Positions 9,747-64,000 are shown, numbered from the stretch's first letter. The stretch is 64,000 bases of DNA from Candidatus Kaiserbacteria bacterium (GCA_016186695.1 JACPLC010000005.1:64852-128851); one strand, 5' to 3'. Translations and numbers: made by a program. Notes: a model not told the origin generated them from the sequence alone.

Positions 9747-9756
9747 TAACCGAAGA

Positions 9757-48461: not shown

Positions 48462-49723
48462 GGTAGTGGTAGCTGTACGCGCGTGCCCCAGTGCCCTTCG
48501 GTATAGCCGCACGCGCGGAAGATGCGTACGCCCGCTCGCACGAGAAACGTCGGGCGAAGACGCATACTCTGCTTCAGCACGTTGAACGAGTGAAAAAAGT
48601 ACGAACCGACGAGCGCGACCGTCATGAGATAGCTGTAGAGAAACTCCGGCACGAGCAAAAGCCGTATGAGCCAATCCCACGCATCCTTCTCTTTATAGAA
48701 TCGCATCAGCCAGAGCTGGAACGTGTAGGTGATGCCGAGTTGAAGGAGCGAGAGCGTAATCACGATGTCGGCCACATACGGCGGCACGTCGCCCTCACCC
48801 CGCAGAAAAAGCAGAATTCCTATCATGAGGAGCATCGAGACGAAAAGCGTATGCCCGAGAATATCCTGAAAAACGGACGAGAGGCTTCGCGCGCCCGCGA
48901 CGACGGTAACTCCGCCGTACGACCATCGCGTGCGCTGGCGCCAGAGGCGCGAGAGACCTTCTGGCACCACTGTCCACGCGGGCGCATTTACCGCGGATTT
49001 TACGCTCCAGCCCTGCGCTTTAAGACGCGCGGTCACCTCGTAATCCTCGATCAAGTGGCTCTCGGAGAATCCTCCGAGCTCACGGAGCGCACAGGTACGG
49101 AAGGCAGTGAGCATCCCGTGCATCACCAAGGGCCCGCGGAAAAATCCTTCGTCGGCCATGCGAATCGCATTGAAGCCGAGGTACTCGAGCCCTTGCAGGC
49201 GGGTAAGCAGATTTTTGTTTTTGTTGAAGACACGGCTTTGCGAGCACACCGCGCCAAGTTCCGGTGAGCTCATGAGTTCTGTCACGAGATTCCTCACCGT
49301 GTTTTCGGCGATCACGACGTCGTCGTCGAGCGTGAGAACGACGTCGGGATACCTGCGCCCCTCGGCGAAAATGCGCGCGAGTGCGTGGTTGAGTGCTCCT
49401 GCTTTGAGCTTGTTCTCGGGCGTGCGTAAGAGGGTGACGCGCTTTGAGATAGTCGCGATGCGTTTGAAGATTGCCTCGCTCCCCTCCTCTCGAGGAGTGC
49501 AATCGTCGACTACGTATACGAGAAGGTTTGGGCTCGAGCGGAGGAGTGCCTGAATGAGCCGCACGGTGAGTGCTCGCGGTTTGTAGGTGGGAACGATCGC
49601 GGCGATGGTCGCATTTCCGAAATCGAACGGCACCCGCTCATGATGAGCGGGCAGAATGAAATGTCCGAGCGTTATTCTCGGAGGTTTTGGGGTGTGAACA
49701 CCCTTTACGGAAGATGCTTCCAT
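48458..49723 (-). CDS. Processive family-2 glycosyltransferase (PgaC/IcaA/cellulose-synthase-like).
   Basis: DDC and DDD (DxD-type) motifs, the QxxRW motif (WRQRTRW), and about 5 C-terminal TM. Confidence 0.75.
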   Translation of the reverse strand: MEASSVKGVHTPKPPRITLGHFILPAHHERVPFDFGNATIAAIVPTYKPRALTVRLIQALLRSSPNLLVYVVDDCTPREEGSEAIFKRIATISKRVTLLRTPENKLKAGALNHALARIFAEGRRYPDVVLTLDDDVVIAENTVRNLVTELMSSPELGAVCSQSRVFNKNKNLLTRLQGLEYLGFNAIRMADEGFFRGPLVMHGMLTAFRTCALRELGGFSESHLIEDYEVTARLKAQGWSVKSAVNAPAWTVVPEGLSRLWRQRTRWSYGGVTVVAGARSLSSVFQDILGHTLFVSMLLMIGILLFLRGEGDVPPYVADIVITLSLLQLGITYTFQLWLMRFYKEKDAWDWLIRLLLVPEFLYSYLMTVALVGSYFFHSFNVLKQSMRLRPTFLVRAGVRIFRACGYTEGHWGTRVQLPLP

Positions 49724-49883
49724 ACAATGCGCCGATTTCCTCCCGCGCGCGCATCGAACGTGCGTTCCAATAAGGATATTGCAAAACAATATCGGGACAA
49801 CTATACAGCCCTACGGAAGTGTGTCTCAAGCGGCCTGAAATGCTGATGAATCTCCGACATTCCGACATATCGAGCAGAGTTAT

Positions 49884-51743
49884 TTGACGAATTCGCGGTA
49901 CAATGTCGCTATGGATCATTTCGGCGAACGGCCGAAAAAGTTTTATGGGCCGCCCGATGTTCGCGGTGGACCACCTGACGACAGCAACGGAGATGATGAA
50001 TATCTTTATAGCGACAAACCAAATTTGGATGAGATGCCCGGCGTATATTCGGACATCAGAACGAAGCGCACTATATATAACGAGTTAGAGACACCGGAAC
50101 CCGCGCCAGGAGAGCGTCGAAGAACTACTGTAGACCGAGACGCAAAATTTACTCAATTTTCGGAGGAGTGGTTCGATCAGCGCCAAATATTAGATAAGGA
50201 GGGTGAGAGAGGTCTACTACCAGCGGATCAGTTGTTTGTTCCCGATGAGTTAGAAGGTAGAAGTCCATTCGAAGTATTAGGAGTACCCGAAGGAGATGTT
50301 GTGGAAGCTCACAAATCCTACAGAATGCTAATGCGCACTTTGCACCCCGACGTGGTAGGCATGGCAATAAATAATGCGATCGACAAGGCCATGGGCGGCT
50401 CGAATGCTGCATGGAAACAATTCATAGAGCTTTCGAAAGTCTTTTCCGAGTGGCAAGAGCGCAAACCAAAAGTCCTCAAAGATGAAGAATTATCTGCACT
50501 TAGCGAAGGTGAGAGACAAAAATACATAGACGCCTACAAAGAATGGCAGAATGAGAAACCGGGCGAAGGCAGCATAGAAACGGTACGGCAAGAGATTAAA
50601 GCGAGTGCCGAGAAAAAAACGCGAGTATTAAACGCCGCTTGGGACCAGATCAAAAAAGGGCTTTCCTTCGAAAATATTGTTGGTGCTGCAGCACACTGGG
50701 AAACGAGTCACGGCACCAGTATCAGTGACCGTTACGGTGACGCGTTTATTCTCCATCCTTATCAGACTATTCATCTTGAAGCTGATGCGGAAATATATAG
50801 AAATCTTGACTTTACAGTTACAGACGCCGGCGAGCTTTTATTAAAGAAGGCAGAGCCGGCATATCTGGGCTTTGCCTCGGGCTTTGACAAACGAATCGGC
50901 ATATACGAACAGTATAGAGAATCCTATTCTCTCAAACACCTCTTCGCCTTTTTAGAGCATCGGGACGGGAGGACGATACACCATGCACTGCTTTCCGATG
51001 TTGCCGAAGAATTTGAGCTGACGGGATTTCAGATAGGAACACTTCAGAACCTCATGAAAGCGAACGTCGATGCAGAAAAAATTTGCGAGGAGCTGGGAGT
51101 AAGGCCGCAATTCGACTTGCCCCACCAATCTGGCCGCGATGCTATCCCCGTTGACAATATCATTGAAAACATTGTTGACGGCGGTACATTTGGTAGTGCT
51201 CGAATCGACCGATTTGCGAAAGCCGGATATACGCCCGAAACGCTTACTGCACTCACAAGTTTTGTGATGTCAGAGAAGCCACGAGCTGAACAAGATATTC
51301 GAAACGAGAGCAACCGGGTTACGTACAGTGTCGCGAGGTCAACGAGCGAGTCATTTGCAAAAGTTCGAGAGCGCGAAGAAAAAAAGTCGTCAACAGTGTC
51401 ACGTGAATACAGTCCTCAAAAATACGTCGCGAGCAAAATCAGGACTAGGTTGTTCGAACTGCAACAAAGACCTCACCAATTTGCAAAAACAATTCAGGAT
51501 ATTCAAAGAGGCCCGACCTACACGACTCACGAAGAGGATACGGTGGAATATCGCGTCGGAGTCGAGTTTGGGCGAGATGGTTTGAGATTAGTATTGCCGG
51601 TACAGGAAAGCCTCAATCAATACAATTTTTCTTCGGTAACGGAAGTCTTTTTCAATCAGAATGATCTGGGAATAATGAAAGAGATTGCGTATGGGCGCAG
51701 CGTTACAGGAACACCGTCAAAGGGAATAACGGGGAAACGCTAG
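49884..51743 (+). CDS. Large cytoplasmic protein with an internal J-domain-like segment (HPD motif).
   Basis: SPFEVLGVPEGDVVEAHKSYRMLMRTLHPDVVG; otherwise no recognisable domains. Confidence 0.45.
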   Translation: MTNSRYNVAMDHFGERPKKFYGPPDVRGGPPDDSNGDDEYLYSDKPNLDEMPGVYSDIRTKRTIYNELETPEPAPGERRRTTVDRDAKFTQFSEEWFDQRQILDKEGERGLLPADQLFVPDELEGRSPFEVLGVPEGDVVEAHKSYRMLMRTLHPDVVGMAINNAIDKAMGGSNAAWKQFIELSKVFSEWQERKPKVLKDEELSALSEGERQKYIDAYKEWQNEKPGEGSIETVRQEIKASAEKKTRVLNAAWDQIKKGLSFENIVGAAAHWETSHGTSISDRYGDAFILHPYQTIHLEADAEIYRNLDFTVTDAGELLLKKAEPAYLGFASGFDKRIGIYEQYRESYSLKHLFAFLEHRDGRTIHHALLSDVAEEFELTGFQIGTLQNLMKANVDAEKICEELGVRPQFDLPHQSGRDAIPVDNIIENIVDGGTFGSARIDRFAKAGYTPETLTALTSFVMSEKPRAEQDIRNESNRVTYSVARSTSESFAKVREREEKKSSTVSREYSPQKYVASKIRTRLFELQQRPHQFAKTIQDIQRGPTYTTHEEDTVEYRVGVEFGRDGLRLVLPVQESLNQYNFSSVTEVFFNQNDLGIMKEIAYGRSVTGTPSKGITGKR

Positions 51744-51758
51744 CTGCCCGAGCAACGA

Positions 51759-53153
51759 TTACAGGGTGTCTGCCTGAAGAACTGCCTCCGAATGCTTGCC
51801 CGAAGGGTCGGTGTGTCCTGCACCGAGTGCTTCTCCTGCTGCGACGAGTGCGTCGCGAACGTCGCTCCAGAGCGCTCCGGGGTTGTTTGCTATGTAGAGC
51901 GCGGCGGCGCCGGCGGCATGCGGGCTCGCCATCGAAGTGCCGCTTATGCTTTTATATCCGCTCTTCAACCATGTCGAATAGATAGAGACACCGGGAGCGC
52001 CGATGTCGACGGGCGTTCCCCAGTTGCTGAAGGAAGCGAACGTGTCGTCGGCTCCATAGGCTGTAGCAGCGCCTCCGCCTCCCGACAAACCATTTGAATC
52101 CGCGAGCGCTGAGACAGTAATGACAGCATCGTCGTAGGCAGCAGGCACGAAGCCCGCGGCGTTTGCACCGGAATTCCCCGCTGCAACGACGATCGTCACG
52201 CCCGCGTCGCGCGCGCGGCAGATTGCCTTGTGCAGTGCATCGTTGTTGGAGTTGCCGCAATTGTTGTCGGAAACACCGCCGCCGCCTAAGCTAAGGTTTG
52301 CGACCGTGATGGGCCCGCCGTTTTTGGGCGCCTTGCTCGTCACGAAATCAATGCCGCAGATAACGCTCGACCACGACCCGCTGCCTGCATTATTGAGTAC
52401 GCGGACAGCCCACAATTTCGCCGATGGAGCGACGCCCACGACGCCGACGCCGTTATCGAGGGCCGCGATCGTGCCCGCCACGTGCGTGCCATGACCGTTT
52501 CCGTCGTTGTAGCTGGAGCCGGTCGAGCAGTTCTTGCCGCCGACGATGTTTGTTTTGAGATCGGGATGGCTCAGCTGTATCCCCGTGTCGATGACTGCGA
52601 CGTTGACTCCCGCTCCCTTATTGCTCAAGAATTCTGCATCTATGCGATTGATGCCTGTCGGCAGCGTTTGCAGCGAGGCCTTAACAGCTTCCGTGGTCGG
52701 CGATTCATCAGAGGGTGGAGGCGACGGAGGCGGTGCGGGAGGAGGAGGCTTGCGACGGTGCGATTCTGCACCTACATCGTCGCGAGCACCACGCACGCGG
52801 ACGGACTCCGCAATAGATACGATCCTGTCCTCGCTCACGAATGCGACGCGCGGATCGTTCGCGACCACTGCAAGGTCACTTTCTGAAAAACGCGCCGCAA
52901 AACCGGTGAGCGCGCTTCGATACGAGCCGAGCCGCTCGCCGCCTGCGCGTGCGATGATCTCCTGTTCCGCGGAATCTGCATCAACAGAGTCTTGCAAGAC
53001 GACGATGTACTGCCCCTCGATGCGAGCCTCGCGCACTGCCCTTTCGTCCCGTTCGCGCACATCTTCACCGAAGATGAGCTGAGGGATGATCAATAATGAA
53101 AAAATAACAAGCAGTATAGCGCTCAAAAAGCCACCCTGACTCATCGCTTTCAT
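51759..53153 (-). CDS. Secreted subtilisin-like serine protease (S8) with an I9 propeptide and a Pro-rich linker.
   Basis: Catalytic D (VAVIDTG), H (HGTHVAG) and S (GTSMASPHAAG) are present, along with PPPPAPPPSPPPS. The track start is 53189 (MSEIG...); a signal-peptide-proximal Met lies at 53153. Confidence 0.85.
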   Translation of the reverse strand: MKAMSQGGFLSAILLVIFSLLIIPQLIFGEDVRERDERAVREARIEGQYIVVLQDSVDADSAEQEIIARAGGERLGSYRSALTGFAARFSESDLAVVANDPRVAFVSEDRIVSIAESVRVRGARDDVGAESHRRKPPPPAPPPSPPPSDESPTTEAVKASLQTLPTGINRIDAEFLSNKGAGVNVAVIDTGIQLSHPDLKTNIVGGKNCSTGSSYNDGNGHGTHVAGTIAALDNGVGVVGVAPSAKLWAVRVLNNAGSGSWSSVICGIDFVTSKAPKNGGPITVANLSLGGGGVSDNNCGNSNNDALHKAICRARDAGVTIVVAAGNSGANAAGFVPAAYDDAVITVSALADSNGLSGGGGAATAYGADDTFASFSNWGTPVDIGAPGVSIYSTWLKSGYKSISGTSMASPHAAGAAALYIANNPGALWSDVRDALVAAGEALGAGHTDPSGKHSEAVLQADTL

Positions 53154-53404
53154 GGCATAAAATGTATCACGATTCCCGATCTCCGACAAGATGCCAAAAA
53201 TCAGGGTTTATGAAGTTTATGCACACCTCACGCTGCCTTCACGCTCCCACACCTACAGTGCATGATAGGATTTTTTGTACAAGCATAGGCCGAGGTCTGG
53301 GAAACCAGCGGTCAGTACAGCGTTGCTGTTTCGATGCCTGAAACCTAAGGTGCCCGCACATGAGCTGATGCGTTTGTTTATCCGTTTATTAATTTTATTC
53401 TTGT

Positions 53405-54100
53405 ATGGAAACGGCAAGAAATGTGTCCGTAGTGGTGCTCGCTTTGGCGGTTTTTAGCCTCCTCGCGGCATCGATTGCGTTTGCAGACATTAATAGCAGT
53501 TCATTCACGGTGACCGTTGAGAATTCAGGTACGATCACCAACACCGCTTCGTCAACGGCCGAAACGGGAGACAACACCGCAACGGGTAGCACGGGCGGCG
53601 CCGGAGGAGGCGGTGGCTCGGTAACCGCAGGCGCGGGAGACTTTAACAACGGAGGAGCGACCGCCGGCAATGGCGGCAATGGTGGAAACGCGGATGACGG
53701 CGGAGATGTCACGACCGGTGCCGCCACATCGGCTGCAGAATCCACAAACACGCTCAACGACACCGAGATCGATATCGATGTCGCGTCGACAACGGTCGGC
53801 AATATCAACAGCACAGCTATCACTGCCACCTCTACCTCGACTGGTGCGGTAACAAATGATACCCGTTCGAGAGCTCGCACCGGCGGCAACAGCGCGACGG
53901 GAAGCACAGGCGGCGCGGGCAGCTCGGGCGGAGCAGTAACCTCCACAAGCGGCAGCAACAACAACGGCGGAGCCATCGCTGGCAGCGGTGGAAGCGGTGG
54001 CACAACTGGCTTCGGCGGGACGATCAACACGGGACCGAGCAACAGCACGGCCTCCAGCACCAACGTGATGAATAGGCTTCGGATTAGAATCTCACTCTAA
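53405..54100 (+). CDS. Secreted Gly/Asn/Thr-rich protein with two tandem modules. The internal module ends in an acidic strand (TEIDIDV); the C-terminal module ends basic (...NVMNRLRIRISL).
   Basis: Signal peptide METARNVSVVVLALAVFSLLAASIAFA. Modules contain TG.N.ATGSTGGAGG...NNGGA.AG.GG.GG. Confidence 0.65.
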   Translation: METARNVSVVVLALAVFSLLAASIAFADINSSSFTVTVENSGTITNTASSTAETGDNTATGSTGGAGGGGGSVTAGAGDFNNGGATAGNGGNGGNADDGGDVTTGAATSAAESTNTLNDTEIDIDVASTTVGNINSTAITATSTSTGAVTNDTRSRARTGGNSATGSTGGAGSSGGAVTSTSGSNNNGGAIAGSGGSGGTTGFGGTINTGPSNSTASSTNVMNRLRIRISL

Positions 54101-54117
54101 GTCCTGCCCTTTTCTGC

Positions 54118-54148
54118 AAAACCTTCCTCCAAAGTGGAGGAAGGTTTT
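54118..54148. terminator. Bidirectional intrinsic terminator.
   Basis: Perfect 13-bp stem AAAACCTTCCTCC-AAAGT-GGAGGAAGGTTTT. Confidence 0.65.
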
Positions 54149-54157
54149 GTGTATGCT

Positions 54158-55258
54158 TCAAGAAAAGCTGATCGGGAGAGGCTCCGGTCTTCGCAAGAAC
54201 AGGTAGAGATACATGAAGCCGAGAAGTGCCGAAGTAAAGGAGAATACGAGGAGTCCCAGAGCATCCGCCCCGCCGGCTCCTGCGTTTGGAACTCCCGGCT
54301 CGCCTTGCGGTCCTCCCATAAAATCCGGTATAGGGGTGACCGCGCCGGCAACTTGGCCGGAGGGCGCTCCACCGCTCGAACCTCCACTCGAGCCGCCCGA
54401 ACTGCTTCCACCCGAACTGCCACCACTCGGCCCTCCTCCACTCGAGCCGCCCGATGGCCCTCCGCCGGTAGATCCGCCGCTCGGCCCACCGCCAGACGGC
54501 CCGCCTCCGCTATCGCCTCCCTGCCCGCCGGGACCCTCATCGTCATTAATAATGGTGCAGGTTTTAATGTCGCCCGCGGTGAGCGTAACGCGCCCCGAGG
54601 AATCGCAATCGCCGCTAAATTCCGGTACGTACTTCTGCGTTGTAGTTCCGACAGTCACACTCGTCGTTGCTTCCGAAACAATATACGTACCCGCAAGAAA
54701 TGTCCTCTGTACACCGGATTGGACGGTCGTCGAGCCGACGCGAAGCGTGAAGTCGGTCGTCGTTGCGCTCCCCTTGTCGTCGTTGATGACGATTTTAATG
54801 AGCGTGAGTTTGGGCGAGCCGGGCGGAGGCGGGCCATTCGGGCACGCCGGTACGTCGAATTGCGGTATCGGCTCGCCCGCGCTATTGAGAAGCGGAAAAA
54901 CAATGCAGTATTTTATTTGAGAGCCGAGGTCCGCTCCGGGCGTGGAAGGAGCGGCTGCAGTAGAGGGAGCGGAGGGAGAAGAAGGAGAATCGGGGGTTGC
55001 GGGGTCCCGCGTTGCTCCGATATCGGGAAACTGCACCGTCGGAGAATTTGGAGCCTCCGGCTTTGCAGGTATCGTCGGAAGGGCCGGAATCGTCATCGCG
55101 GGCAAAACGCGGGCGCTCTCTCTCGTTTCGTCACGAGATGCCCGCTCCGGCGAACGGTCGGTGTCAGAGTATGCAAACGTCGCGAGCAGCCAGAAAAACT
55201 GCGTGAGAACGAAAAGACTTATGAGGAGTAGGTTACGAAATGTGGTCGTGGTCGCCAT
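54158..55258 (-). CDS. Secreted protein with a Pro-rich region, a Gly/Ser linker (GGPSGGGPSGGSTGG...) and a C-terminal hydrophobic anchor followed by RRPE.
   Basis: Signal peptide MATTTTFRNLLLISLFVLTQFFWLLATFAYS. C-terminus ALGLLVFSFTSALLGFMYLYLFLRRPEPLPISFS. Confidence 0.55.
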   Translation of the reverse strand: MATTTTFRNLLLISLFVLTQFFWLLATFAYSDTDRSPERASRDETRESARVLPAMTIPALPTIPAKPEAPNSPTVQFPDIGATRDPATPDSPSSPSAPSTAAAPSTPGADLGSQIKYCIVFPLLNSAGEPIPQFDVPACPNGPPPPGSPKLTLIKIVINDDKGSATTTDFTLRVGSTTVQSGVQRTFLAGTYIVSEATTSVTVGTTTQKYVPEFSGDCDSSGRVTLTAGDIKTCTIINDDEGPGGQGGDSGGGPSGGGPSGGSTGGGPSGGSSGGGPSGGSSGGSSSGGSSGGSSGGAPSGQVAGAVTPIPDFMGGPQGEPGVPNAGAGGADALGLLVFSFTSALLGFMYLYLFLRRPEPLPISFS

Positions 55259-55494
55259 GCGCACGCCCCACCCCATAGTTTCCCGATACGAAGCAGCGCA
55301 GAAACATTGTAGATGGCCAAAATTAAGGACTCATGAACGAAAAACCTGATAATAGGGGGAAAGTCGGTAGGTAACCCTGTGCACAACCGGGGTACAGCTA
55401 TGTGCATAACCGGAAATCTCCAACAAATCAAACAAAAATCGCGACAGTGTGTTTCCGAGGAATCTTCCGCGAGCCTGTATCCCAATCAAAGCGA

Positions 55495-55579
55495 GGGCGC
55501 GAATATTTTTATCGCCGAGGACCTGTTCGAAACCGCCTACCGGCGGTGAGCCCCGCAGGCGATAAAAATATTCGCGCCC
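55495..55579. repeat. Perfect 22-bp inverted repeat with a 41-nt spacer (long hairpin) in the intergenic region.
   Basis: GGGCGCGAATATTTTTATCGCC ... GGCGATAAAAATATTCGCGCCC. The spacer itself contains CCGCC-TAC-CGGCGG. Confidence 0.6.
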
Positions 55580-55658
55580 GAGCGCCCCCCTACCTACCCT
55601 TCTTCGCCAAGGCTACAAAGGGTTCCCCTTCTTTTCAAACTCGGCGCAAGCTACGCAA

Positions 55659-56105
55659 TCATTTGGCGAAGGAGAAGAAGAATACAAAACTGAAGATACG
55701 CGCGAGCGAAGCCCTGATCTGCTGGAAGGCACGTGTAAGCCGCGAAGGAGACGAGGACGCAGATACCTCGGCAGAACCCTCGGCGCTCAGCGATTCCGTG
55801 TTTTCTGTGTTGACGCGTACCTCGAGACGGCGGATGCCTTCAAGTAGAGTGTCGGTCGAGGTCGCCTGCACGACGCCGTCTTCCGAAGTCCGTACATCGA
55901 CACGAACGCGCGTGTTTGAACCTTCAGTGCGAATGAAACTCCTGACATCGGCATCGGCGCTTGAGGTGCCGGACGCGCTTGCTTCGCCCGAAACCGTCAC
56001 ACCGCCTGTCTCGCTGATGCTCACGTTCTCCACGGTGAGCGCATCCGCGCCACGCACTGTTAGTACGAACGCAAGAAGCACCGAAATGAGCAAGATGTTC
56101 TTCAT
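55659..56105 (-). CDS. Small secreted protein.
   Basis: Signal peptide MKNILLISVLLAFVLTVRG. Acidic, Thr/Ser-rich, with a hydrophobic C-terminus. Confidence 0.45.
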   Translation of the reverse strand: MKNILLISVLLAFVLTVRGADALTVENVSISETGGVTVSGEASASGTSSADADVRSFIRTEGSNTRVRVDVRTSEDGVVQATSTDTLLEGIRRLEVRVNTENTESLSAEGSAEVSASSSPSRLTRAFQQIRASLARIFSFVFFFSFAK

Positions 56106-56110
56106 AGTCG

Positions 56111-57322
56111 CTAGCAGTTGAGGACGGTGTTGGTGCCACCGCCAGCATTGCAGGTGTCGAAGTCGGGACCTCCATCGATGAAATCGTTTCCTCCAAGAGT
56201 AGTCACCGTATCTTCTCCGGCACCTGCGAAAACTTTGTTTTTGCCCCCGCCTGCCGAAATCGTGTCGTCACCATTACCCGTCTTTATCTGGTCATCTCCG
56301 TCTCCCGCGGTTACTATCTTGTTGCCATTGCCAGCGAGAACCGTGTTCTTCCCTGCACCTGCAGAAATCACTGACACTCCAGCGCCTATTTTTACGGTGT
56401 CGTTTCCATCTCCCAGACAAATGATGAAGTCACCATTTCCAGCGATTACTTTGTCATTGCCCCCCTTCCCCACAAACATCGTGAACGACGAAAGTGTCAC
56501 CGTGTCCCGGCCGGGCCCGCCATTCATCAACGTATAGCCTGCTGGAGCGACCGTCGGCGTGTCACATGCGTTTGCGGGAACTGATGGAATGTCGTTTGTT
56601 GCAGGCTTCACAGCGACGACTGGCTCATCCGCTTCTCTTGCAGAGGAGATATTGATCGTCATAGTCTCTGTTCCTGCGGTCGAGGCTGCGGACTTGAATG
56701 AGCCCGCGGTCCAGCCCATATCGCTTGTGGTGGGAACCATGAACTCCGTCTCGCCCGCACCGTATGACAACCATGTCGCGGTCTCCCACTTGGGGAGTGA
56801 AAGGAGAAGGGTGTTGCCCACGGTCGTCGTGACAGACGTAGAGTTTGAGGACTGACTACCCTCAAAAGTCACATTGGAAACGTCTACGGAGCTTGATTGA
56901 GCAGCGTCTTGAAGGGTGAAGACCGCGTAGTCGGCGAAAGTGGCACTTACAAAGTTGATCTCAAAGGGACCTGTCGATGGATTTGCGAGATAACCGACGT
57001 AGTAGCAGGCTCTGTTGAATGTTCCCGGGATACCAGAAATGGTGAGCGATGTTCCGTTCTGTGTAGCTGATATGGGCGCGGTGGGACAATCATTTTTTGA
57101 GATGAGAGCGATGAGAAGTTTGTTCGTGCCCCCAGAGGGTACCGTGTATTCGAAAGAGTGCGAGGTGGTATCGATGGCCTTCTGCATCGGCACAGGAAGT
57201 GAGTCGAGGATCGAAGGCGTTGTTGAGGCAGCATGAACAGCTGTAAAGAGTGTGCTCAGCGCGAACGCCATCGCGAAAATCGCAATCACTATTGTCGTGG
57301 ATATTGCTTCGTATCTAGTCAT
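56111..57322 (-). CDS. Secreted or membrane-anchored protein with C-terminal RTX-like (hemolysin-type Ca-binding, GGxGxDxUx) repeats.
   Basis: GNGDDTISAGGGKNKVFAGAGEDTVTTLGGNDFIDGG and GKGGNDKVIAGNGD. N-terminal TM/signal. Confidence 0.6.
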   Translation of the reverse strand: MTRYEAISTTIVIAIFAMAFALSTLFTAVHAASTTPSILDSLPVPMQKAIDTTSHSFEYTVPSGGTNKLLIALISKNDCPTAPISATQNGTSLTISGIPGTFNRACYYVGYLANPSTGPFEINFVSATFADYAVFTLQDAAQSSSVDVSNVTFEGSQSSNSTSVTTTVGNTLLLSLPKWETATWLSYGAGETEFMVPTTSDMGWTAGSFKSAASTAGTETMTINISSAREADEPVVAVKPATNDIPSVPANACDTPTVAPAGYTLMNGGPGRDTVTLSSFTMFVGKGGNDKVIAGNGDFIICLGDGNDTVKIGAGVSVISAGAGKNTVLAGNGNKIVTAGDGDDQIKTGNGDDTISAGGGKNKVFAGAGEDTVTTLGGNDFIDGGPDFDTCNAGGGTNTVLNC

Positions 57323-57327
57323 GTCCC

Positions 57328-57393
57328 TCTCTGAGGCCTCGATTCTTTCAAGACCTCATGAGAAGGAGGAACGGACTCGTTCCTCTTCTCGTT
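57328..57393 (-). promoter_or_regulatory. Conserved intergenic/leader unit, copy 1: a hairpin plus the CCTTCTCATGAGGTCTTGA and TCGAGGCCTCAGAGA boxes immediately upstream of the RTX-gene ATG.
   Basis: Minus strand GAGGAACG-AGTC-CGTTCCTC followed by the conserved boxes. A homologous unit lies at 63274..63398. Confidence 0.5.
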
Positions 57394-57397
57394 ACAG

Positions 57398-58867
57398 CTA
57401 ACGAAACCGTATCCGCGTGAAGTTGAGTGAATTCAGCGTCCTCCCGACACTGCTCGAGTTGCCCGTTAGAACGGCACCGCTTGTGCTTCCCGATCCGCCT
57501 GCGCCGCCGCTACCAGCCGTAGCCCCGCCGTTGTTTTCGTCACCGAGAGAGCCGCCAATGTCGCCACCGGTGCCGCCGGTACCGCCCGCGCTTCCGAGCC
57601 CGATGTTCTGACCCGTGTGAGAACGAGCCGAGGTCGTGTTGTTAATCATGCCACCATTGCAAACTTTCACCCGTATGCTCCCAGTGAGTGGAGGCGGACA
57701 GACTTCTAATTCAAACGCGCCTATATCACACCCCGGGCCTTGAGGCCGCGTAATACCCCGCTGGTCTGTAGTAACGGTGCAGGAAAGAAGTGGCACGGCA
57801 TCGATGGCAGGGCTTCCCGCAAGAAGTGCGTGCGTTTCTGTCTCGCCGCCATTGTTCTGGAGCGGACCAAGCAGCGGATCCGTGCTATTGAGGTCCCCTG
57901 TACCCCCGAGGGCACACGAGGCGTCGCTTGCTATGTTGTGCCCGAGGGAAGTAATGCCTCCAGCACAGTCGTCGGAGGGAGTTGCTGCTGTGTTTGAACT
58001 GACGATGGAGTTCTCCAGCGTCATGGTGCCCCCGAAGTTCCAGATGCCGCCGCCATTGTCGGTAGCGGTGTTATCGGTGATCGTCGCGTGCGTGATAAGC
58101 ACGGTACCGAACCTGTTGAAGATACCGCCGCCGTTCAGCGCGGTGTTTCCGCTAATAGTGCTGTTAGTAATGGTTATCGTCGGGTCGGCGCCGTAGATGC
58201 CGCCCCCGCGCCCTATCGTGCTGTTGCCGCTCACCGTGCTTCGCGTCAGTGTGAGCGTGCCCGAGCTGAAAATGCCTCCGCCGCCGCCGCTGGTGTTGGA
58301 ACCGAGCAGAATATTGTCGCTGACGGTCGTATCAGTCAGAGTGAGAGTGCCCGTATTCAAAATACCGCCACCGAAATTTTCGCCTGTGTTATCGGTAACG
58401 ATACTCTTAGTCAGCGTTAGAGTGCCTGCATTCAGGACGCCGCCGGCGCCTGCGCCCGCCTCGGGATCGCCGTTTTGGATCGTGACTGCGTCGATCAGGA
58501 CTGTCACCCCAGAGAAAACAGTGAGCACCCTGTCGATGCCGCCTCCGTCTATGATAGTGGTCGCTGCCCCTGCGCCACTCACGGTTAGGTCGTCTGTGAT
58601 GTCCAAGTCGCCGGTCGCATTCAGATCTTCTCCTGTGCCGACGATGCTAAGTGTGTACGTGCCAGCCGGTAGTGTGACGACGTCGGCGCCAGCGAGCGCA
58701 TTCGCTGCCCCTATTGCTTCCCGCAGAGAGCAGTCGGCATCACACACACCGTCATTAGTGTCCGCAGTTTTGGTGACGGTGAATGTGGCGGCGAGCGCCG
58801 GCGTGGCGAGCGTTAGCGGCACGAGCGCTACCCCAACAACGATAATCCTAGCAAGCAGAGTTTTCAT
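57398..58867 (-). CDS. Secreted CSLREA-domain (choice-of-anchor Q) right-handed beta-helix protein, ending in the shared Gly-rich module and ...LNFTRIRFR.
   Basis: CDADCSLREAIGAAN, then roughly 10 beta-helix rungs (GGGI.N.GTLTLT.STVSGN), then TSARSHTGQN...ENNGGATAGSGGAGG...NFTRIRFR. Confidence 0.65.
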   Translation of the reverse strand: MKTLLARIIVVGVALVPLTLATPALAATFTVTKTADTNDGVCDADCSLREAIGAANALAGADVVTLPAGTYTLSIVGTGEDLNATGDLDITDDLTVSGAGAATTIIDGGGIDRVLTVFSGVTVLIDAVTIQNGDPEAGAGAGGVLNAGTLTLTKSIVTDNTGENFGGGILNTGTLTLTDTTVSDNILLGSNTSGGGGGIFSSGTLTLTRSTVSGNSTIGRGGGIYGADPTITITNSTISGNTALNGGGIFNRFGTVLITHATITDNTATDNGGGIWNFGGTMTLENSIVSSNTAATPSDDCAGGITSLGHNIASDASCALGGTGDLNSTDPLLGPLQNNGGETETHALLAGSPAIDAVPLLSCTVTTDQRGITRPQGPGCDIGAFELEVCPPPLTGSIRVKVCNGGMINNTTSARSHTGQNIGLGSAGGTGGTGGDIGGSLGDENNGGATAGSGGAGGSGSTSGAVLTGNSSSVGRTLNSLNFTRIRFR

Positions 58868-58898
58868 AAAGCGTAAGTGTTTTAGTCATAGCGTGTGG

Positions 58899-59570
58899 CT
58901 ATCGGCCGATGCGAACCACGGTGTGGTTCGCTACGTTCGTAGAGAACGAACTCGAAGAGGTCGTGCCGGAGGAAATGCTCCCCTGACTCACGGCCGAGCC
59001 GCCGTTCCCGCCGTTTCCGGCCGATGCGCCTCCGTTGTTGTCGGCGCCGCCGGTGCCGGAAACATCCCCGCCGTTTCCGCCAACGTATCCGTTTCCGCCG
59101 TTCCCTGCGCTTGCGCCTCCGTTGTTGCTAGTGCCGCCACCGAGCGATGCGACGTTGCCTCCGTCGCCAGCATTCCGTCCCGAGCCTCCGCTCCCCGCCG
59201 ATGAGCCGCCGTTGTTGCTTGAGCCGCCGCCGGAGCTGCTGACATCGCCTCCGTTGCCCGCATCATATCCATTGCCGCCATTCCCCGCCGATGAGCCGCC
59301 GTTGTTGCTCGAGCCGCCCGAAGCAGAGCTCGATCCGCCATTTCCGCCGACCTGCCCGCTTCCGCCACTGCCCGCAGAACTTCCTCCATTGTTCCCTGAA
59401 CCGAACGCGGAGAACAAGCTACTGCCCGAGGTGCGCTCAAGCCGTTCGCTCTGCACACGGATCATCGCCGCCTCGGCGAAGTACGGCAGTGTTATGAAAA
59501 CAACCGCAGAGACGAGCACCCCGATCGCAAGTCCGAGGACGGCAATTTCTTTCTTTTCCAGAAATTTCAT
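58899..59570 (-). CDS. Secreted Gly/Ser/Asn repeat protein (about 27-aa repeats SNNGGSSAGSGGSG.NGGNGG...), ending ...NHTVVRIGR.
   Basis: N-terminal TM, then about 6 repeats, then the C-terminal motif. Confidence 0.6.
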   Translation of the reverse strand: MKFLEKKEIAVLGLAIGVLVSAVVFITLPYFAEAAMIRVQSERLERTSGSSLFSAFGSGNNGGSSAGSGGSGQVGGNGGSSSASGGSSNNGGSSAGNGGNGYDAGNGGDVSSSGGGSSNNGGSSAGSGGSGRNAGDGGNVASLGGGTSNNGGASAGNGGNGYVGGNGGDVSGTGGADNNGGASAGNGGNGGSAVSQGSISSGTTSSSSFSTNVANHTVVRIGR

Positions 59571-59600
59571 ACGTGACGTTACTAATTAATAATTACTGGC

Positions 59601-62600
59601 CTAATTTCCAAAAAACCAGCCGCCGATAGTGCTTACGTTGAAACGGCCGGCGCCACGCGAGTTCGTACTGTCTTCCTTCTTTGGCTCCTTCTTGGCCGTC
59701 GGTTTAGGTTTCGCTGCAGCCGCAGGCTTCTTGGGAGCCGGAGTTGACACCGACTCGGGAGCTACAGCGACAGGCGCCTGCGCCGCAGCGACAGGTTCCG
59801 AAACAGGAGCTGCGCCGCCGCAGTAGACCGCATTGATCTTTTTCAGCGTCGAAGCGTACACACTGCCGGTGCCGCGTGTGAGTCCGAAGGGGGCGAGAAC
59901 CTCGCTCGTGTGTTTTTCCTGGAATGTGCTGACTGCTGCTGCCGTCAGCGCACCATAGAAGCCGGATATCGGAAGATTCGAGCCGACATCGAAGTTCAGA
60001 AATGCTTGCAGCTTTTTGACCTCAAGCGTATTCGTCGAACCACGGCGCAGGTATGTGGATAGAAGCGGGCTACATGCCGCTGCTGCTGCGGGAGGCGGCG
60101 TCGCTGCCGTTGCCGTTGAAGCCCCCAAGACTTTTCCTTCGGCAAAGGTCACGTCTCCCCACCCTTCTGCAGGCGGCATTTTGCTTACCATCGGCGCAAA
60201 TGTCGTTTCGTTGCGCTGACCCGTGATGCGTCCGACGTTACGATAGGTGCCGGGCTTGGTTTTGAGGGCATCGAATTCCACCGTGTAGGTAAGGGTTACC
60301 TGATCTCCGGCTTCAAGAGCGCCAAGTTTCCAGCTGCGCGTGCTAAGCGGCCTGTTCCAGGGGTCATAGAGAATATCGGAAAGAGTCGTGTGGTATGCAG
60401 GTCGGGCCCACTTGTCGTTCGTCACGACCACTTTGTAGTCGATAAGGATAGAAGAAGCTGTGGTGCTCGCCGAGAGTGTTGCACTCTTCGAAACTGTTAT
60501 TTTGGGATCGACATTGGGGTCTGCTGTGGAGATCCCCGGTGTCGATGTCGCAAAAACGAAGACAACAGGAACCGGGCCGCCGCTCGAAGAGCCGGCGGTT
60601 GTCGGAAGGCCTCCGCCTCCACCACCTCCGCCGCCCCCACCACCACCGCTCGAAGACCCTGAGCTTGTCGAAGGGCTACCACCGCCCCCGCCTCCGCCTC
60701 CGCCCCCGCCCGAGGAACTGGAACCAGAGGAATCCCCTCCGCCGCCGCCTCCACCAGAAGATCCTGAGGAAGATGAATCCCCTCCGCCGCCGCCACCGCC
60801 CGAGGAATTGGAATCCGAGGAACCGCCTCCTCCGCCGCTTCCACCAGAGGATGAATCGGTTGATCCTCCGGGAGAGCCCGAACCAGAGTCGCCACTGCCC
60901 GAGGAGCCTCCCTCACTTCCGGTATTTGAACTTGTGCCGATGACATTGACCGTCACGGTGCTCGTGTTGTCACTCTCATTTTGATCATGCTCCGCGCCCA
61001 CGACCCTCACGTTCATTGAAACGGGCACGGTTGCTCCTTGAGAGAGACCCAAAAGACGCACGGGGCCTTTTGCGGAGTATGCACGCGTCTCCCCTGGCAA
61101 AAGGGTCCCGAGATTCCATTTGATGCCTGTCTCCGTTTCAAGAGCACCGCTCGACACTTGCGAAAGAGAGAGCTGGCTCCTGTCGTACGTTGCGTGCAGG
61201 GCGACGTTGCTTGCGGCTTTGTCACCGTTATTCCGAACGGTGAACTGATACTGCACTTCTGAATTTGGCTGAGAGGTCGTCGGACTCACGCTCGCGGAGA
61301 CCGAGAGATCCGGATTACTGCCTCCGAAGTTAATGTTGCCGTTCCAGTCTCCGTAGATGTTGAAAATACCGAGGACCCAGTTTCGGTTCACGATGTTGGT
61401 GTTCACCATGTTGATGACGTTGGCCGTCGCGAACGCATCACCCGAGCGCACCGAAGCGATACCGTCCTCCACCGCACCTGTGTTATTACCCGTTTCCGCG
61501 ATGACCTCCACATCGGTCTGCACCTTTGCAAGGTTCGTCGATGAAGCGAGGAACGACGACGAGTTCAGGATGCCCGTCGAGCCCGAGGTGCGCTGTCTCG
61601 GGCCGGAAACGATCTCAAACCCGTAGTCCGTCTCGTGCGCCGTAAGTTCGCGCGGCAGGCCGACGACCGAACCGTTCCAATTACCCCACACGCGAAAGAT
61701 GAAATGCACAGAAGCTCCGCCCACCCTTGTTTGGTTCGCCGAGGTATAGCTCTTCGAAGAAGATCGCGCGAGGCCGGTTACCACCTCCCCGTGTCCGAGC
61801 GCAGTCGAGCTCGCCGTGTTGCCGCCGGTCACCGCGCGTGCGGTCGTCGTCCCGAAGAAGTCCTCGTCATTCGTATTGTCGACGACGAAGGAACTCGAGT
61901 TCATGGTCGGCAGTGAAGAGGTCCCGTTCAAAAGCGCGCCGAAGAATTTCTCGTCGGGAAGAACGATGTCTTCCTGCAGGTCGCCGAAGCTGCTCGCCGA
62001 AACGAGGAGGTAGCTCGAGTTGATGAAGTTGGTGTTCACGAGGTTCAAGACGTTGGCAGAGGCATACGCGCTCCCGGTATCGATCACGGCGTCCCCGGCA
62101 TCAGTCGAGGTCGCCGAGTTCGCGCCTGTCGTTGCACGTACCAATACTTTGTTCGTTACGGTTGCGGTGTTGTTGTTGAGAATATCCAAATCGGCGCTGT
62201 TGAGACACGTGAGAATCGTACAGCCGAGCTCTGTGGGGCTATTCCCCGGACCCTGCTCAGAGAAGTATGAAAGATCAAAATCCCGCAGATCCAGTCGATC
62301 TCCCGTCGAAGAATTGAGGAAGAGCACAAGTCCGTCGGAGTTGAAAAGGTTGGTATTCACGACGTTTGTGACCTCGGCAGTGGCTATCGCCTTGCCCGTG
62401 GCGATCAGCGCTGTGCCGCCGGTACCACCCGTAGCTTGGTTTTCCCCCGTAAACGCTCGGGCTTGTCCATCGGTCGTAAGCTCGGCATCGTTCGTGGCGG
62501 AAGAGGTGATGTGAGAGCTGTTTGTTTTCCCCGGCGCGTCTACGTTCGTGCGTGTGATGTTCAAGACGTTGTGAACCGTCGTCGTTGCCGTCGCATCTCC

Positions 62601-63266
62601 TGTCAATACCGTCCCGCCGATCTTCGCACCCGTGCCGTCACCGGAGACTGCCGACCTGAAGACAGGCTCGTCGGGTGCTGCCGCCTCGGTCGTTGTTGCA
62701 CTGACGTCGATGATCGGCTTATCGGGATTTGGCGGCTTCGCGGTCCCCACATTGGTAAAGTCGGTATTGTCCGTGCCACTCTCCTCCGGCGCTACATCCC
62801 CCGAACTCGTCGAAGAAGTGGACGAAGCAGAAGGATCTCCCGCGTCTGTTGCGGTCGTACCCGGCCCGCTTGCCGCGAACAAGCTCGGCTCCGGCGCACT
62901 CGAACCCGACTCTACTTGAGAGGATGACTCTGATGGAGGAGGTGGCGCTGGCGACTCTTCCGGAGCCGGCTCTGCGGGCGTTCCCGTCTCGGTAGAGGTT
63001 TCGCTCGTCCCCGCGGTCCGGTCGCGCTCCGCCCGTGGGCTCGTGGGATCTGTTGATGTTGCTTCCTGCGCAAAGGCGCTCGGTATCGGCGTGATGCCGA
63101 CGACAAGCGCCACCATCACCGTAAGTGATAGTGTGCGCATGATGGATATTGACCCCGTTAGAGAACCAGTCCCGTAAAAGAGATTCAGCCGTCCCGAATA
63201 CGCCGTTCGATACGGGAAGGCACCCAAGCGCCGTTTCTCTAACGGGGTTGACATCTTCTTATCCAT
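59601..63266 (-). CDS. Giant secreted cell-wall-associated protein with N-terminal AR.xTG.N...VNTN..N repeats, a jelly-roll-like region, two DUF11-like repeat domains, a poly-Gly linker and a C-terminal peptidoglycan-binding (PG_binding_1) domain.
   Basis: PG-binding LRRGSTNTLEVKKLQAFLNFDVGSNLPISGFYGALTAAAVSTFQ. DUF11-like PDLSVSASVSPTT...FTVRNNGDKAASNV. The start is ambiguous: GTG 63299 in the track, ATG 63266 in the conserved RBS context, or ATG 63140 directly before the hydrophobic signal MRTLSLTVMVALVVG. Confidence 0.6.
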   Translation of the reverse strand: MDKKMSTPLEKRRLGAFPYRTAYSGRLNLFYGTGSLTGSISIMRTLSLTVMVALVVGITPIPSAFAQEATSTDPTSPRAERDRTAGTSETSTETGTPAEPAPEESPAPPPPSESSSQVESGSSAPEPSLFAASGPGTTATDAGDPSASSTSSTSSGDVAPEESGTDNTDFTNVGTAKPPNPDKPIIDVSATTTEAAAPDEPVFRSAVSGDGTGAKIGGTVLTGDATATTTVHNVLNITRTNVDAPGKTNSSHITSSATNDAELTTDGQARAFTGENQATGGTGGTALIATGKAIATAEVTNVVNTNLFNSDGLVLFLNSSTGDRLDLRDFDLSYFSEQGPGNSPTELGCTILTCLNSADLDILNNNTATVTNKVLVRATTGANSATSTDAGDAVIDTGSAYASANVLNLVNTNFINSSYLLVSASSFGDLQEDIVLPDEKFFGALLNGTSSLPTMNSSSFVVDNTNDEDFFGTTTARAVTGGNTASSTALGHGEVVTGLARSSSKSYTSANQTRVGGASVHFIFRVWGNWNGSVVGLPRELTAHETDYGFEIVSGPRQRTSGSTGILNSSSFLASSTNLAKVQTDVEVIAETGNNTGAVEDGIASVRSGDAFATANVINMVNTNIVNRNWVLGIFNIYGDWNGNINFGGSNPDLSVSASVSPTTSQPNSEVQYQFTVRNNGDKAASNVALHATYDRSQLSLSQVSSGALETETGIKWNLGTLLPGETRAYSAKGPVRLLGLSQGATVPVSMNVRVVGAEHDQNESDNTSTVTVNVIGTSSNTGSEGGSSGSGDSGSGSPGGSTDSSSGGSGGGGGSSDSNSSGGGGGGGDSSSSGSSGGGGGGGDSSGSSSSGGGGGGGGGGGSPSTSSGSSSGGGGGGGGGGGGGLPTTAGSSSGGPVPVVFVFATSTPGISTADPNVDPKITVSKSATLSASTTASSILIDYKVVVTNDKWARPAYHTTLSDILYDPWNRPLSTRSWKLGALEAGDQVTLTYTVEFDALKTKPGTYRNVGRITGQRNETTFAPMVSKMPPAEGWGDVTFAEGKVLGASTATAATPPPAAAAACSPLLSTYLRRGSTNTLEVKKLQAFLNFDVGSNLPISGFYGALTAAAVSTFQEKHTSEVLAPFGLTRGTGSVYASTLKKINAVYCGGAAPVSEPVAAAQAPVAVAPESVSTPAPKKPAAAAKPKPTAKKEPKKEDSTNSRGAGRFNVSTIGGWFFGN

Positions 63267-63273
63267 GTTTTCT

Positions 63274-63398
63274 TCTCTGAGGCCTCGAATTTTTACCACT
63301 CATATCCATGGTGGTCAAGACCTCATGAGAAGGAGGGACCGTCGGCGGAATCCGATGCATCGAGTCGAACTGCGTTCGGTCCCTTTCTTCTCTCGTTC
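63274..63398 (-). promoter_or_regulatory. Conserved intergenic/leader unit, copy 2 (it carries insertions relative to copy 1).
   Basis: The boxes GGTCCCTCCTTCTCATGAGGTCTTGA and TCGAGGCCTCAGAGA are shared with 57328..57393. Confidence 0.45.
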
Positions 63399-63430
63399 AG
63401 ATGTTTCCAAGTCAGAACGACAGCTCACGA

Positions 63431-64000
63431 CTACAAGCGAACACGAATAATGGTCGTGTTCAGGAGGTTGATCGTGCCGGAAGTCGAGCTTGCAGCGCCC
63501 GTGTGGATTTCTCCACCGAGGCCGCCAGCGCCGCCTGAGCCACCAGTACCAGCCGATGCACCACCGTTGTTTTCGCTGCCACCTGCGCCGTCAATGTCGC
63601 CACCGACGCCGCCAGTGCCACCGATGCTTCCGTCCGCGAGGTTCTGGCCAGAGCGACCGCGAGCCTGCGTTACGTTGTTGATGGCGTTGTCGTCATCGTC
63701 GTTGTCAGTCGTGACATCAAGAGTGACGCTGTTTATGTCGCCACAGTCACAAGTGAATTCGACGTCGACATCCGTGCCGTTGAGGCTGTTCTCCGTGCCG
63801 GCGTCAGCCGAGGCGTCGCCCGTTTGCACGAAGCCGCCTGCGCCGCCGTTGCCGCCGTTTCCACCGTTTCCGGCAGAAGCGCCGCCGTTGTTCTCACTGC
63901 CACCGCCACCGTTGACGTTGCCGCCGTTGCCGCCGTTGCCGCCAATGCTTCCGAGCGCAACGTTCTCCCCTGTGTGAGAGTCAGCCTGCGTCAGGTTATT
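63431..64000 (-). CDS. Partial CDS (the N-terminus lies beyond the right window edge): secreted Gly/Asn-rich protein with two tandem C-terminal modules. The internal one ends acidic (TDVDVEF); the terminal one ends ...LLNTTIIRVRL.
   Basis: The frame stays open from 63829 to 64000 by hand translation (...TQADSHTGENVALGSIGGNGGNGGNVNGGGGSENNGGASAGNGGNGG...). Confidence 0.6.
   Translation of the reverse strand, partial: NNLTQADSHTGENVALGSIGGNGGNGGNVNGGGGSENNGGASAGNGGNGGNGGAGGFVQTGDASADAGTENSLNGTDVDVEFTCDCGDINSVTLDVTTDNDDDDNAINNVTQARGRSGQNLADGSIGGTGGVGGDIDGAGGSENNGGASAGTGGSGGAGGLGGEIHTGAASSTSGTINLLNTTIIRVRL

Follow-up and report, generated by a model that had tools for sequence, protein, structure and literature searches.

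A glycine-rich C-terminal module and its probable giant surface-protein partner in a locus of Candidatus Kaiserbacteria

Background

Why do several secreted proteins, encoded close to each other in the same bacterial genome, end in nearly the same way? The question is raised by a stretch of 64,000 nucleotides from Candidatus Kaiserbacteria (GCA_016186695.1, JACPLC010000005.1:64852-128851), a member of the candidate phyla radiation (CPR), which we refer to in full as the window. An initial annotation of this stretch had described five Gly/Asn-rich secreted proteins with a common Arg-containing ending, possibly an unrecognised sorting, anchoring or polymerisation signal. Here we report that four of these proteins end in an undescribed Gly-rich beta module of approximately 85-95 amino acids (aa) that is specific to Paceibacteria (Parcubacteria, CPR), and we relate this module to a giant protein encoded next to it.

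Results

Four proteins of the window share the module

Letters A to F designate the genes along the window. Translation returned the five open reading frames (ORFs) A to E at the positions first described, with their C-termini exactly as quoted. A signal peptide had been assigned to each of them. By sequence reading, we found a signal-peptide-like N-terminal hydrophobic segment in each of the complete ORFs A to D; the N-terminus of E lies beyond the window. The genes and their modules are as follows.

43209..43613, minus strand: gene A, 134 aa; Gly-rich, secreted, C-terminus NINSSSVRIR; a doubtful or degenerate relative only
53405..54100, plus strand: gene B, 231 aa; complete two-module protein with signal peptide
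53495..53779, plus strand: module 1 of B, with acidic last strand NTLNDTEIDIDV
53810..54097, plus strand: module 2 of B, ending in NVMNRLRIRISL and stop
57398..58867, minus strand: gene C, 489 aa; signal peptide, CSLREA domain, beta-helix-like repeats, choice-of-anchor Q domain, junction and one full module
58700..58783, minus strand: CSLREA domain of C (TIGR04214, aa 29-56)
57707..57880, minus strand: choice-of-anchor Q domain of C (NF041518, aa 330-387)
57401..57682, minus strand: module of C (aa 396-489), preceded by the junction C-P-P-P...V-C-N-G-G and ending in NSLNFTRIRFR and stop
58899..59570, minus strand: gene D, 223 aa; signal peptide, about four copies of the Gly-rich insert (...NNGG[AS]SAGNGGNG...GNGGDV...) and a core half-module
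58902..59075, minus strand: core half-module of D, ending in NVANHTVVRIGR and stop
63431..64000, minus strand: gene E, partial two-module protein with its 5' end beyond the window
about 63758..64000, minus strand: module 1 of E, ending in the acidic strand NSLNGTDVDVEF, then CDC
63434..63685, minus strand: module 2 of E, ending in LLNTTIIRVRL and stop

The module opens with a long N-terminal strand (N-x-N-x-A-x-V-x-N-x-V...A), followed by a T-G-x-N-x-A turn, a Gly-rich insert of approximately 34 aa (GS-GG-x-GG-x-GG...NNGGA-x-AG-x-GG-x-GG) and a second strand (GG-x-V-x-TG-x-A-x-S...N-x-[VL]-N-x-[NT]-x-[TV]-R-[IV]-x-R) with which the protein ends. We built an independent hidden Markov model (HMM) from 173 modules, all taken from proteins outside the window, and used as controls 300 composition-preserving shuffles of each tail. 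Proteins B and E reached 152 and 146 bits, respectively, with two modules each, and C and D reached 73 and 36 bits with one module each. Since the shuffled tails scored at most 8 bits (maximum -1.6 for D), compositional bias is excluded for B, C, D and E. Spacing is moreover constant across the alignment of the 173 modules, in agreement with the shared, regularly spaced pattern initially proposed.

The same analysis reduces the five genes originally listed as carriers of the module to four. With the independent HMM, protein A scored 1.8 bits for the tail and 9.2 bits at full length, neither of which is significant, and its E-value in the window-wide scan with the module HMM was 0.45. Its tail score lies inside the shuffle range, and A has therefore in common with the others only the terminal N-x-N-S-S-S-V-R-I-R and some Gly-rich similarity. 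In the first homolog search it had surfaced solely as part of the query, and we rejected it as a member of the module family. Protein A matches HYW59_03625 (P0036), from a metagenome-assembled genome of Candidatus Kaiserbacteria, exactly. No ORF of the window other than B, C, D and E carries the module in the HMM scan, and exact-sequence lookup of B, C and D returned no match under the start codons used.

Protein C had been singled out as the member with a CSLREA (choice-of-anchor Q) domain. Both domains score above the curated NCBIfam cutoffs of 25 bits (40.9 bits for CSLREA, TIGR04214, and 93.3 bits for choice-of-anchor Q, NF041518) and are followed by the C-terminal module, in line with the definition of this protein type, which asks for a C-terminal anchoring element. 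An ortholog of C with the same tail is present in another Kaiserbacteria locus (L013, E-value 2e-199).

The Arg-ended copy closes the chain and differs from internal copies

We performed a full HMMER search of 1.84 billion representatives of clusters at 50% identity and found the module in 331 of them at E-value <= 1e-3, and in 181 at E-value <= 1e-10. Among 183 fetched members with a match, the module is complete and lies at most three residues from the C-terminus in 157, and its end lies at most 12 residues from the C-terminus in 12 more; the other 14 resemble truncated or frameshifted fragments. The Arg-ended copy is thus terminal in every complete protein. When the family is defined by a significant profile match and a last copy with ...N-x-[VLI]-N-x-x-x-x-R-[IV] at most four residues from the C-terminus, it comprises B, C, D, E and 157 of the 183 database members, and leaves out A.

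The terminal copies converge on the consensus [AST]-x-x-[VLI]-N-x-[VLI]-N-[TR]-[NT]-[IVR]-[TV]-R-[IV]-x-R, after which the chain ends. Of 152 tails, 150 have Arg at the anchor position, two to four residues before the end of the chain. Terminal and internal copies have a different composition of the last strand: Arg accounts for 28% of its residues in terminal and 4% in internal copies, and Asp and Glu together for 1.3% and 19%, respectively. Internal copies are not scattered at arbitrary positions; they occupy a fixed tandem position, end acidic or neutral and have no Arg ending. Within the window, B and E each hold such an internal copy, with an acidic rather than Arg-rich last strand (NTLNDTEIDIDV and NSLNGTDVDVEF). 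The element is therefore a repeat module and not merely a tail, as had been assumed at first.

In the commonest architecture, a signal peptide and two modules account for nearly all of a protein of approximately 220-250 aa. The first module begins straight after the signal peptide (median residue 32) and the last one ends the chain. In 80 of 109 two-module proteins a CxC motif follows the internal copy, at the position where E has CDC. The net charge of mature two-module proteins averages about -21, compared to +2.7 (standard deviation 0.7) for the last strand. This family-wide acidity suggests binding of cations such as Ca2+, though the RTX profile finds no match. A second class of approximately 100-145 aa retains only the core half-module (NNGGA-x-x-GNGGNGG...GG-x-V-x-x-G...N-x-x-N-T-x-x-V-R-I-x-R). 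In a third class, one or two modules stand behind large passengers, namely SpaA_2 prealbumin, NosD-like beta-helix, fn3/purple-acid-phosphatase N, GTA spike-fibre and CSLREA/choice-of-anchor Q. The junction between passenger and module is conserved as C-P-x-x-P...I-x-I-C-N-x-G (checked in C, P0136 and P0164).

Further regularities were apparent in these proteins. The Gly-rich inserts of the acidic two-module proteins contain Asp and Glu residues. Exactly two Cys are found in 50 of the CxC-bearing two-module proteins (FTCDCGD in E, approximately 63740..63750), and in passenger-bearing members two Cys flank the first strand of the module (C-P-P...I-C-N-x-G). Disulfide formation and metal binding are conceivable roles of the CxC motif. 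Of 158 tails, 109 have an N-x-S/T sequon among their last 12 residues (NSS, NTT, NFT and NHT in the window), and such sequons reappear, as [IV]NSS, where the first strand begins; they may be glycosylation sites or plain positions of the Asn ladder.

The module matches the repeat of a giant neighbouring protein

The gene next to E encodes the giant protein F, whose main features are the following.

59601..63299, minus strand: giant protein F, ORF of 1232 aa
63266 or 63140, minus strand: likely ATG start of F; 63140 corresponds to Met54 (MRTLSLTV...) and opens a signal-like segment
61380..62645, minus strand: head of F (aa 219-640), predicted beta-helix-like, with one half-repeat and four repeats
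60948..61310, minus strand: DUF11/CLIPPER domain of F, 55.7 bits (cutoff 24.6)
59910..60023, minus strand: PG_binding_1 domain of F, 19.1 bits, under the cutoff of 23

From N- to C-terminus, F is composed of a signal peptide, a low-complexity region rich in acidic residues, Ser, Thr and Pro, the head, the DUF11/CLIPPER domain, a Gly/Ser linker, a second Ig-like region, the PG_binding_1 domain and a Lys/Pro/Ala-rich tail. Degenerate copies of the C-terminal pattern had been noticed within this protein, and profile comparison bears this out. The module profile aligns to a profile of 26 giant repeats with an hhalign probability of 97.3% (E-value 2.4e-11), with the Gly-rich stretch of approximately 34 residues inserted after the T-G-x-N-x-A turn and before the V-x-T-G-x-A strand. 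The module HMM also matches F piecewise at every repeat. The best match is the first half-repeat, GGTVLTGDATATTTVHNVLNITRTNVD, which is tail-like and includes N-x-L-N-x-T-R. Judging from these alignments, the module without its Gly-rich insert is the repeat unit from which the beta-helix-like head predicted for F is made.

The AlphaFold2 (AF2) model of the head is all beta, with a predicted local distance difference test score (pLDDT) of 78 and a predicted TM-score (pTM) of 0.74. Its structural neighbours are SufD and a putative adhesin (7.1), EtpA (5.9), RTX (5.4), RsaA (5.1), CsgA (3.9) and FapC (3.4). Foldseek returned nothing significant for the head against the PDB, and we therefore consider it a beta-helix-like fold without close solved relative. 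In the AF2 model of protein B (mean pLDDT 65, pTM 0.38), each module consists of two long strands flanking a Gly-rich excursion. A polyglycine-II or polyproline-II bundle formed by the GG-x triplets was considered and dropped, as AF2 shows only low-confidence coil and short strands.

A published account of fibrillar adhesins (PMC12617251) lists CLIPPER (DUF11) as a stalk domain, and F fits the definition given there, with a signal peptide, a CLIPPER/DUF11 stalk and a cell-wall anchor. Although PG_binding_1 stays under its cutoff in F, it reaches 36.9 bits in the homolog P0187 and was recorded in three other giants. Because of this domain composition, F has the appearance of a wall-anchored fibrillar adhesin whose head is novel.

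Module genes and giant genes lie side by side

We searched for the repeat of the giant in one genome per GTDB species and retrieved 66 loci, which we analyzed with approximately 10 kb of flanking sequence on each side of the match. Almost all of them are labelled Patescibacteria/Paceibacteria (Kaiser-, Adler-, Taylor-, Ryan-, Wildermuth- and Zambryskibacteria), with many generic 'uncultured Saccharibacteria', some 'bacterium' and one Pseudomonadales. Synteny was counted in the 60 loci with at least 900 nucleotides upstream of the giant ORF. A module gene lies upstream of the giant on the same strand within 4 kb, and mostly within 1 kb, in 46 of these 60 loci, which is the arrangement of E directly upstream of F. 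Every ORF scored as a module protein stops zero to five residues after its last module. Two other matches (L020 and L066) overlap or coincide with the giant ORF, and matches elsewhere in the flanks are rare. In L021 and L022, which lie on the same contig (CAZWFX010000002.1), two giant loci approximately 17 kb apart each have their own upstream two-module gene.

The co-occurrence with giant proteins that bind peptidoglycan (PG), envisaged in the initial annotation, is detectable also from the module side. All five contexts retrieved by searching for the module are of this locus type, and four of them adjoin a giant of 1215-1272 aa. The fifth (L075) adjoins an RTX gene and a contig-truncated ORF of 409 aa that may be the start of a giant. 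In two of these contexts a D-like gene lies just downstream of the stop codon of the giant or overlaps it, and equivalents of D immediately downstream of giants are found in L009, L012 and L073.

Other surface-protein genes recur in the same loci, and those of the window are listed here.

56111..57322, minus strand: RTX (HemolysinCabind) repeat protein, Pfam 48.7 bits
55659..56105, minus strand: small secreted protein of 148 aa, with phmmer matches immediately after the giant ORF in seven of 66 loci
54158..55276, minus strand: SpaA_2 (prealbumin-like) surface protein (Pfam SpaA_2), ending in GVPNAGAGG, a hydrophobic helix and RR
51759..53189, minus strand: secreted S8 subtilase with I9 propeptide (Pfam), the sole candidate processing enzyme in the locus

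Of the 66 giant loci, 12 have a homolog of the RTX protein, which in most cases separates the module gene from the giant gene, and 20 have SpaA_2 proteins. In the SpaA_2 homologs of L001 (5122..6291) and L003 (14201..15241), the corresponding end reads MPNTGAGG or VPNAGLGG and continues with a helix and basic residues; in L001 this gene has a sortase gene as its neighbour. An ending of the type [VM]PN[AT]G-[AL]GG, helix and basic residues looks like a non-canonical Paceibacteria sortase motif, and hence like an alternative anchor. Homologs of the S8 protease are present in 12 of 66 loci, eight of them strong orthologs downstream of the giant, and also in L005. Sortase, rhomboid and exosortase genes are absent from the recurrent neighbours of the 66 loci, although L001 does encode a sortase. 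A processing enzyme, whose co-occurrence had been suggested as a check on the sorting idea, thus does not recur within the flanks analyzed.

The module has no counterpart in family databases

Neither Pfam nor NCBIfam nor PDB sequences returned a match to the module in 25 proteins, namely the five of the window and 20 family members from the database. The libraries include models for LPXTG, PEP-CTERM, GlyGly-CTERM and the C-terminal domain (CTD) of the type IX secretion system (T9SS), and the threshold for the tails was E-value <= 0.1. The element is thus unrecognised, as first stated. The tails (...N-x-L-N-T-T-x-x-R-V-R-L) have no hydrophobic helix and no model match at this threshold, so that the layout of LPXTG, PEP-CTERM or GlyGly-CTERM signals is absent. 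T9SS CTD profiles had no match in the same 25 proteins, and the T9SS genes PorU/V and SprA are not among the recurrent neighbours in the flanks, where no search dedicated to them was made. The RTX profile PF00353 (HemolysinCabind, GGxGxDxUx) matches no module protein at E-value <= 0.1; it does match the locus protein at 56111..57322. Curlin_rpt and other functional amyloid profiles found no match among the module proteins, and a fold search with the weak AF2 model of B gave nothing significant. In our searches of the literature on Gly-rich surface proteins of Parcubacteria, on choice-of-anchor proteins and on CPR sortases and surface proteins, we encountered no account of the module.

Discussion

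A possible docking or assembly module on a wall-anchored structure

Given the homology to the repeat of the giant, the conserved gene order and the strictly terminal Arg-ended copy, we tentatively interpret the module as a non-covalent docking or assembly element of a wall-anchored surface structure, and we would put the probability of this reading at about 0.45. After Sec export, modules would associate with each other and with the homologous head of the giant through extension or complementation of a beta-sheet or solenoid, and small subunits and passengers would thereby be held non-covalently on the wall-anchored structure. The invariant basic strand that terminates the chain might be the exposed edge, or latch, of this interaction. 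The module is fused to unrelated adhesin-like passengers, and an apparent sortase-type signal takes its place in the SpaA_2 proteins of the window, L001 and L003. Docking could accordingly be an alternative to that signal.

Several observations weigh against this interpretation. No module gene was found at the threshold used in 14 of the 60 giant loci; AF2 models the small protein B poorly; a long disordered region precedes the head of the giant, whose N-terminal edge is not obviously free for docking; and the charges of internal and terminal strands do not covary (r 0.13). This lack of covariation leaves a simple model of acidic-basic strand pairing unsupported, and we rejected the idea that the acidic internal strand pairs with the basic terminal one.

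Docking has to be weighed against other explanations. In a stronger form of the same idea, which we hold to be rather unlikely, a self-polymerising fibre analogous to curli, Fap or TasA would have the two-module protein as its major subunit. Subunits would stack head to tail into a beta-solenoid or functional-amyloid-like fibre, with the giant as nucleator or anchor, like CsgB or TapA, and passenger-bearing members as caps or decorations. The small proteins are indeed practically all module, flush with both termini, and the giant reads like a covalent string of the same units, in which a tail-like strand is followed after approximately five residues by the next N-terminal strand. The Asn-rich strands and the TG-x-N-x-A turn recall the G-x-G-N-x-A of curli. 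Structural matches are confined to solenoids, CsgA and FapC among them, and are weak; the subunit gene keeps its place upstream of the giant. The missing match to Curlin_rpt or other amyloid families speaks against such a fibre, as does the net charge of about -21 per subunit, which opposes polymerisation unless counter-ions such as Ca2+ are bound. A different and likewise improbable explanation is that the Arg-alternating terminal strand binds anionic wall polymers or lipids directly, as an autonomous non-covalent domain in the manner of WxL, GW or the basic repeat at the end of CsgB. Shared ancestry and co-regulation would then be all that connects it with the giant. This would account for a strand of +2.7 in proteins of mean charge -21, for the near-invariant Arg at which the chain always ends, and for the proteins of approximately 100-140 aa that retain just this core as a single half-module; the locus also has other wall-associated functions (GT2 with deacetylase, CAP and a PG-binding domain). 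However, three or four Arg offer a small binding surface, similarity to known wall-binding domains is lacking, and the conserved module of approximately 85 aa, its tandem form and its tight operon link to the giant would be left unexplained.

That the module is a true sorting signal, cleaved and possibly attached covalently by a dedicated enzyme such as the neighbouring S8 subtilase, seems to us quite improbable. Such a signal would be comparable to the T9SS CTD with PorU or to LPXTG with sortase, and the T9SS CTD provides a precedent of domain size. Strict C-terminality on diverse passengers, including the choice-of-anchor Q protein, fits this explanation, and so does the S8 gene that lies downstream of the giant both in the window and in eight or more orthologous loci. 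Yet the S8 gene is found in only 12 of 66 loci with no sortase, rhomboid or exosortase-type gene recurring, a hydrophobic helix is missing, and, unlike sorting tags, the module is also internal and forms whole proteins. Apart from the Cys-flanked junction, no conserved cleavage-like site separates passenger and module. The sorting signal of the initial annotation thus proves too narrow a description for a folded module of this size that has internal tandem copies and is homologous to the repeat of the giant. As for chance resemblance caused by Gly/Asn-rich composition, we give it practically no credence. The proteins are of low complexity, word-based searches saturate on Gly-rich words, and protein A looks alike by eye and is not significant; but for B, C, D and E this explanation is already refuted by scores of 36-152 bits against at most 8 for shuffles, by the spacing fixed across 173 modules and by the conserved genomic position. 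Overall, the evidence favours anchoring or polymerisation over enzymatic sorting.

Comparison with known surface systems

No catalogued family is homologous to the module. In its logic it comes close to WxL/Csc clusters, curli-type systems and the T9SS CTD. WxL/Csc clusters of Lactobacillales likewise place a C-terminal domain of approximately 100 or more residues on several secreted proteins encoded side by side, attach them non-covalently to the surface (as would be the case for the module) and include a wall- or membrane-anchored partner and a sortase substrate. Unlike WxL, which is among the Pfam models without match, the module appears to copy the structural repeat of its partner, occurs in tandem and belongs to another phylum, in CPR.

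Curli (CsgA/CsgB), Fap and TasA/TapA also combine small secreted repeat subunits, with strand-turn-strand repeats rich in Asn and Gly, and a surface-anchored homologous or nucleating partner. The last repeat of CsgB is basic and required for surface association, and it resembles the Arg-rich terminal strand of the module. The differences are that family-level matches are missing, that the host of the module has no outer membrane, that CsgG-type secretion genes were not seen among the recurrent neighbours, and that the repeat is longer (approximately 60 aa, or 95 aa with the Gly-rich insert). In addition, the partner is a protein of approximately 1200 aa with a CLIPPER stalk and a PG-binding domain.

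The T9SS CTD is similarly domain-sized (approximately 80-100 aa), all beta, strictly C-terminal and common to many unrelated secreted passengers. The module differs in having no NCBIfam or Pfam match and in being also internal, in tandem and the substance of whole proteins; no T9SS is known from CPR. With the Gly-rich Ca2+-binding beta-rolls of RTX and PE_PGRS proteins, the module shares stretches rich in Gly and Asp of the GG-x-GG-x-GG-D type and very acidic secreted proteins, and a genuine RTX protein lies in the same locus. In contrast to RTX proteins, there is no HemolysinCabind match, the periodicity does not fit the GGxGxDxUx nonapeptide, and the signals are Sec signal peptides rather than those of type I secretion.

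The giant itself is built like CLIPPER (DUF11) fibrillar adhesins (PMC12617251), with a signal peptide, a distal non-stalk head, a stalk and a C-terminal wall anchor. Unlike them, it has as head an uncatalogued beta-helix-like repeat, and an operon partner made of the same repeat is not described in the literature, as far as we searched. Compared to known C-terminal modules for surface attachment or assembly, the unusual feature, as far as the sequences indicate, is that this one copies the structural repeat of the anchor protein itself.

Other genes around the locus

Three further genes of the window recur near giants.

47199..48236, minus strand: CAP-domain protein, near giants in 19 of 66 loci
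48458..49789, minus strand: chitin-synthase-like GT2, near giants in 15-17 of 66 loci, with a deacetylase fusion in some
41852..42619, plus strand: HAD/PMM-like hydrolase, near giants in eight of 66 loci

As these genes both flank the locus and recur near giants, the conserved block may be a larger envelope-biogenesis island.

Close to A, a secreted collagen-like protein of 729 aa (44313..46502, minus strand) consists for the most part of G-x-y triplets, with non-collagen segments in between; its NCBIfam match is SclB-like (E-value 6.7e-61), below the equivalog cutoff. An ORF of 619 aa (49884..51743, plus strand) had no Pfam match and no homolog in the 66 loci, and shows by eye a J-domain-like stretch (...EVLGVP...YRMLMRTLHPD...). 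In L050 the N-terminus of a SpaA_2 protein (8559..10559, minus strand) matches the start of the profile of Peptidase_M73/camelysin (TasA family), possibly a case of a TasA/SipW-type signal region on a surface protein of CPR. Long Pro/Ala/Leu-rich shadow ORFs run antisense over Gly-rich genes (53395..54063, minus strand; 58197..59204, 63450..63977 and 45027..46202, plus strand; and others). Homologous shadow ORFs cluster across loci, and they are almost certainly artefacts of codon composition.

Conclusions

CPR bacteria, or Patescibacteria, are ultra-small and mostly uncultured, and their cultivated members live attached to host cells. Little has been established about how the surface is built and the host contacted in the large branch of Parcubacteria/Paceibacteria. 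The locus analyzed here defines an uncatalogued module that is widespread (331 clusters or more at 50% identity) and identifies its conserved partner, a giant that resembles a wall-anchored fibrillar adhesin with a novel beta-helix head. It also suggests a plausible rule by which proteins are chosen for joint display. It provides a concrete candidate for a lineage-specific surface structure, and the module profile could be used to annotate hundreds of 'hypothetical' proteins and to predict the surface proteome of these genomes. A bolder proposal, which we consider possible though doubtful, is that Paceibacteria assemble their surface independently of sortases: Sec-exported subunits and adhesin passengers would attach by repeat complementation, and the module would extend or polymerise from the solenoid of the giant into a distal surface or host-contact structure. 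If true, this assembly would be a functional monoderm counterpart of nucleator-dependent fibres such as curli.

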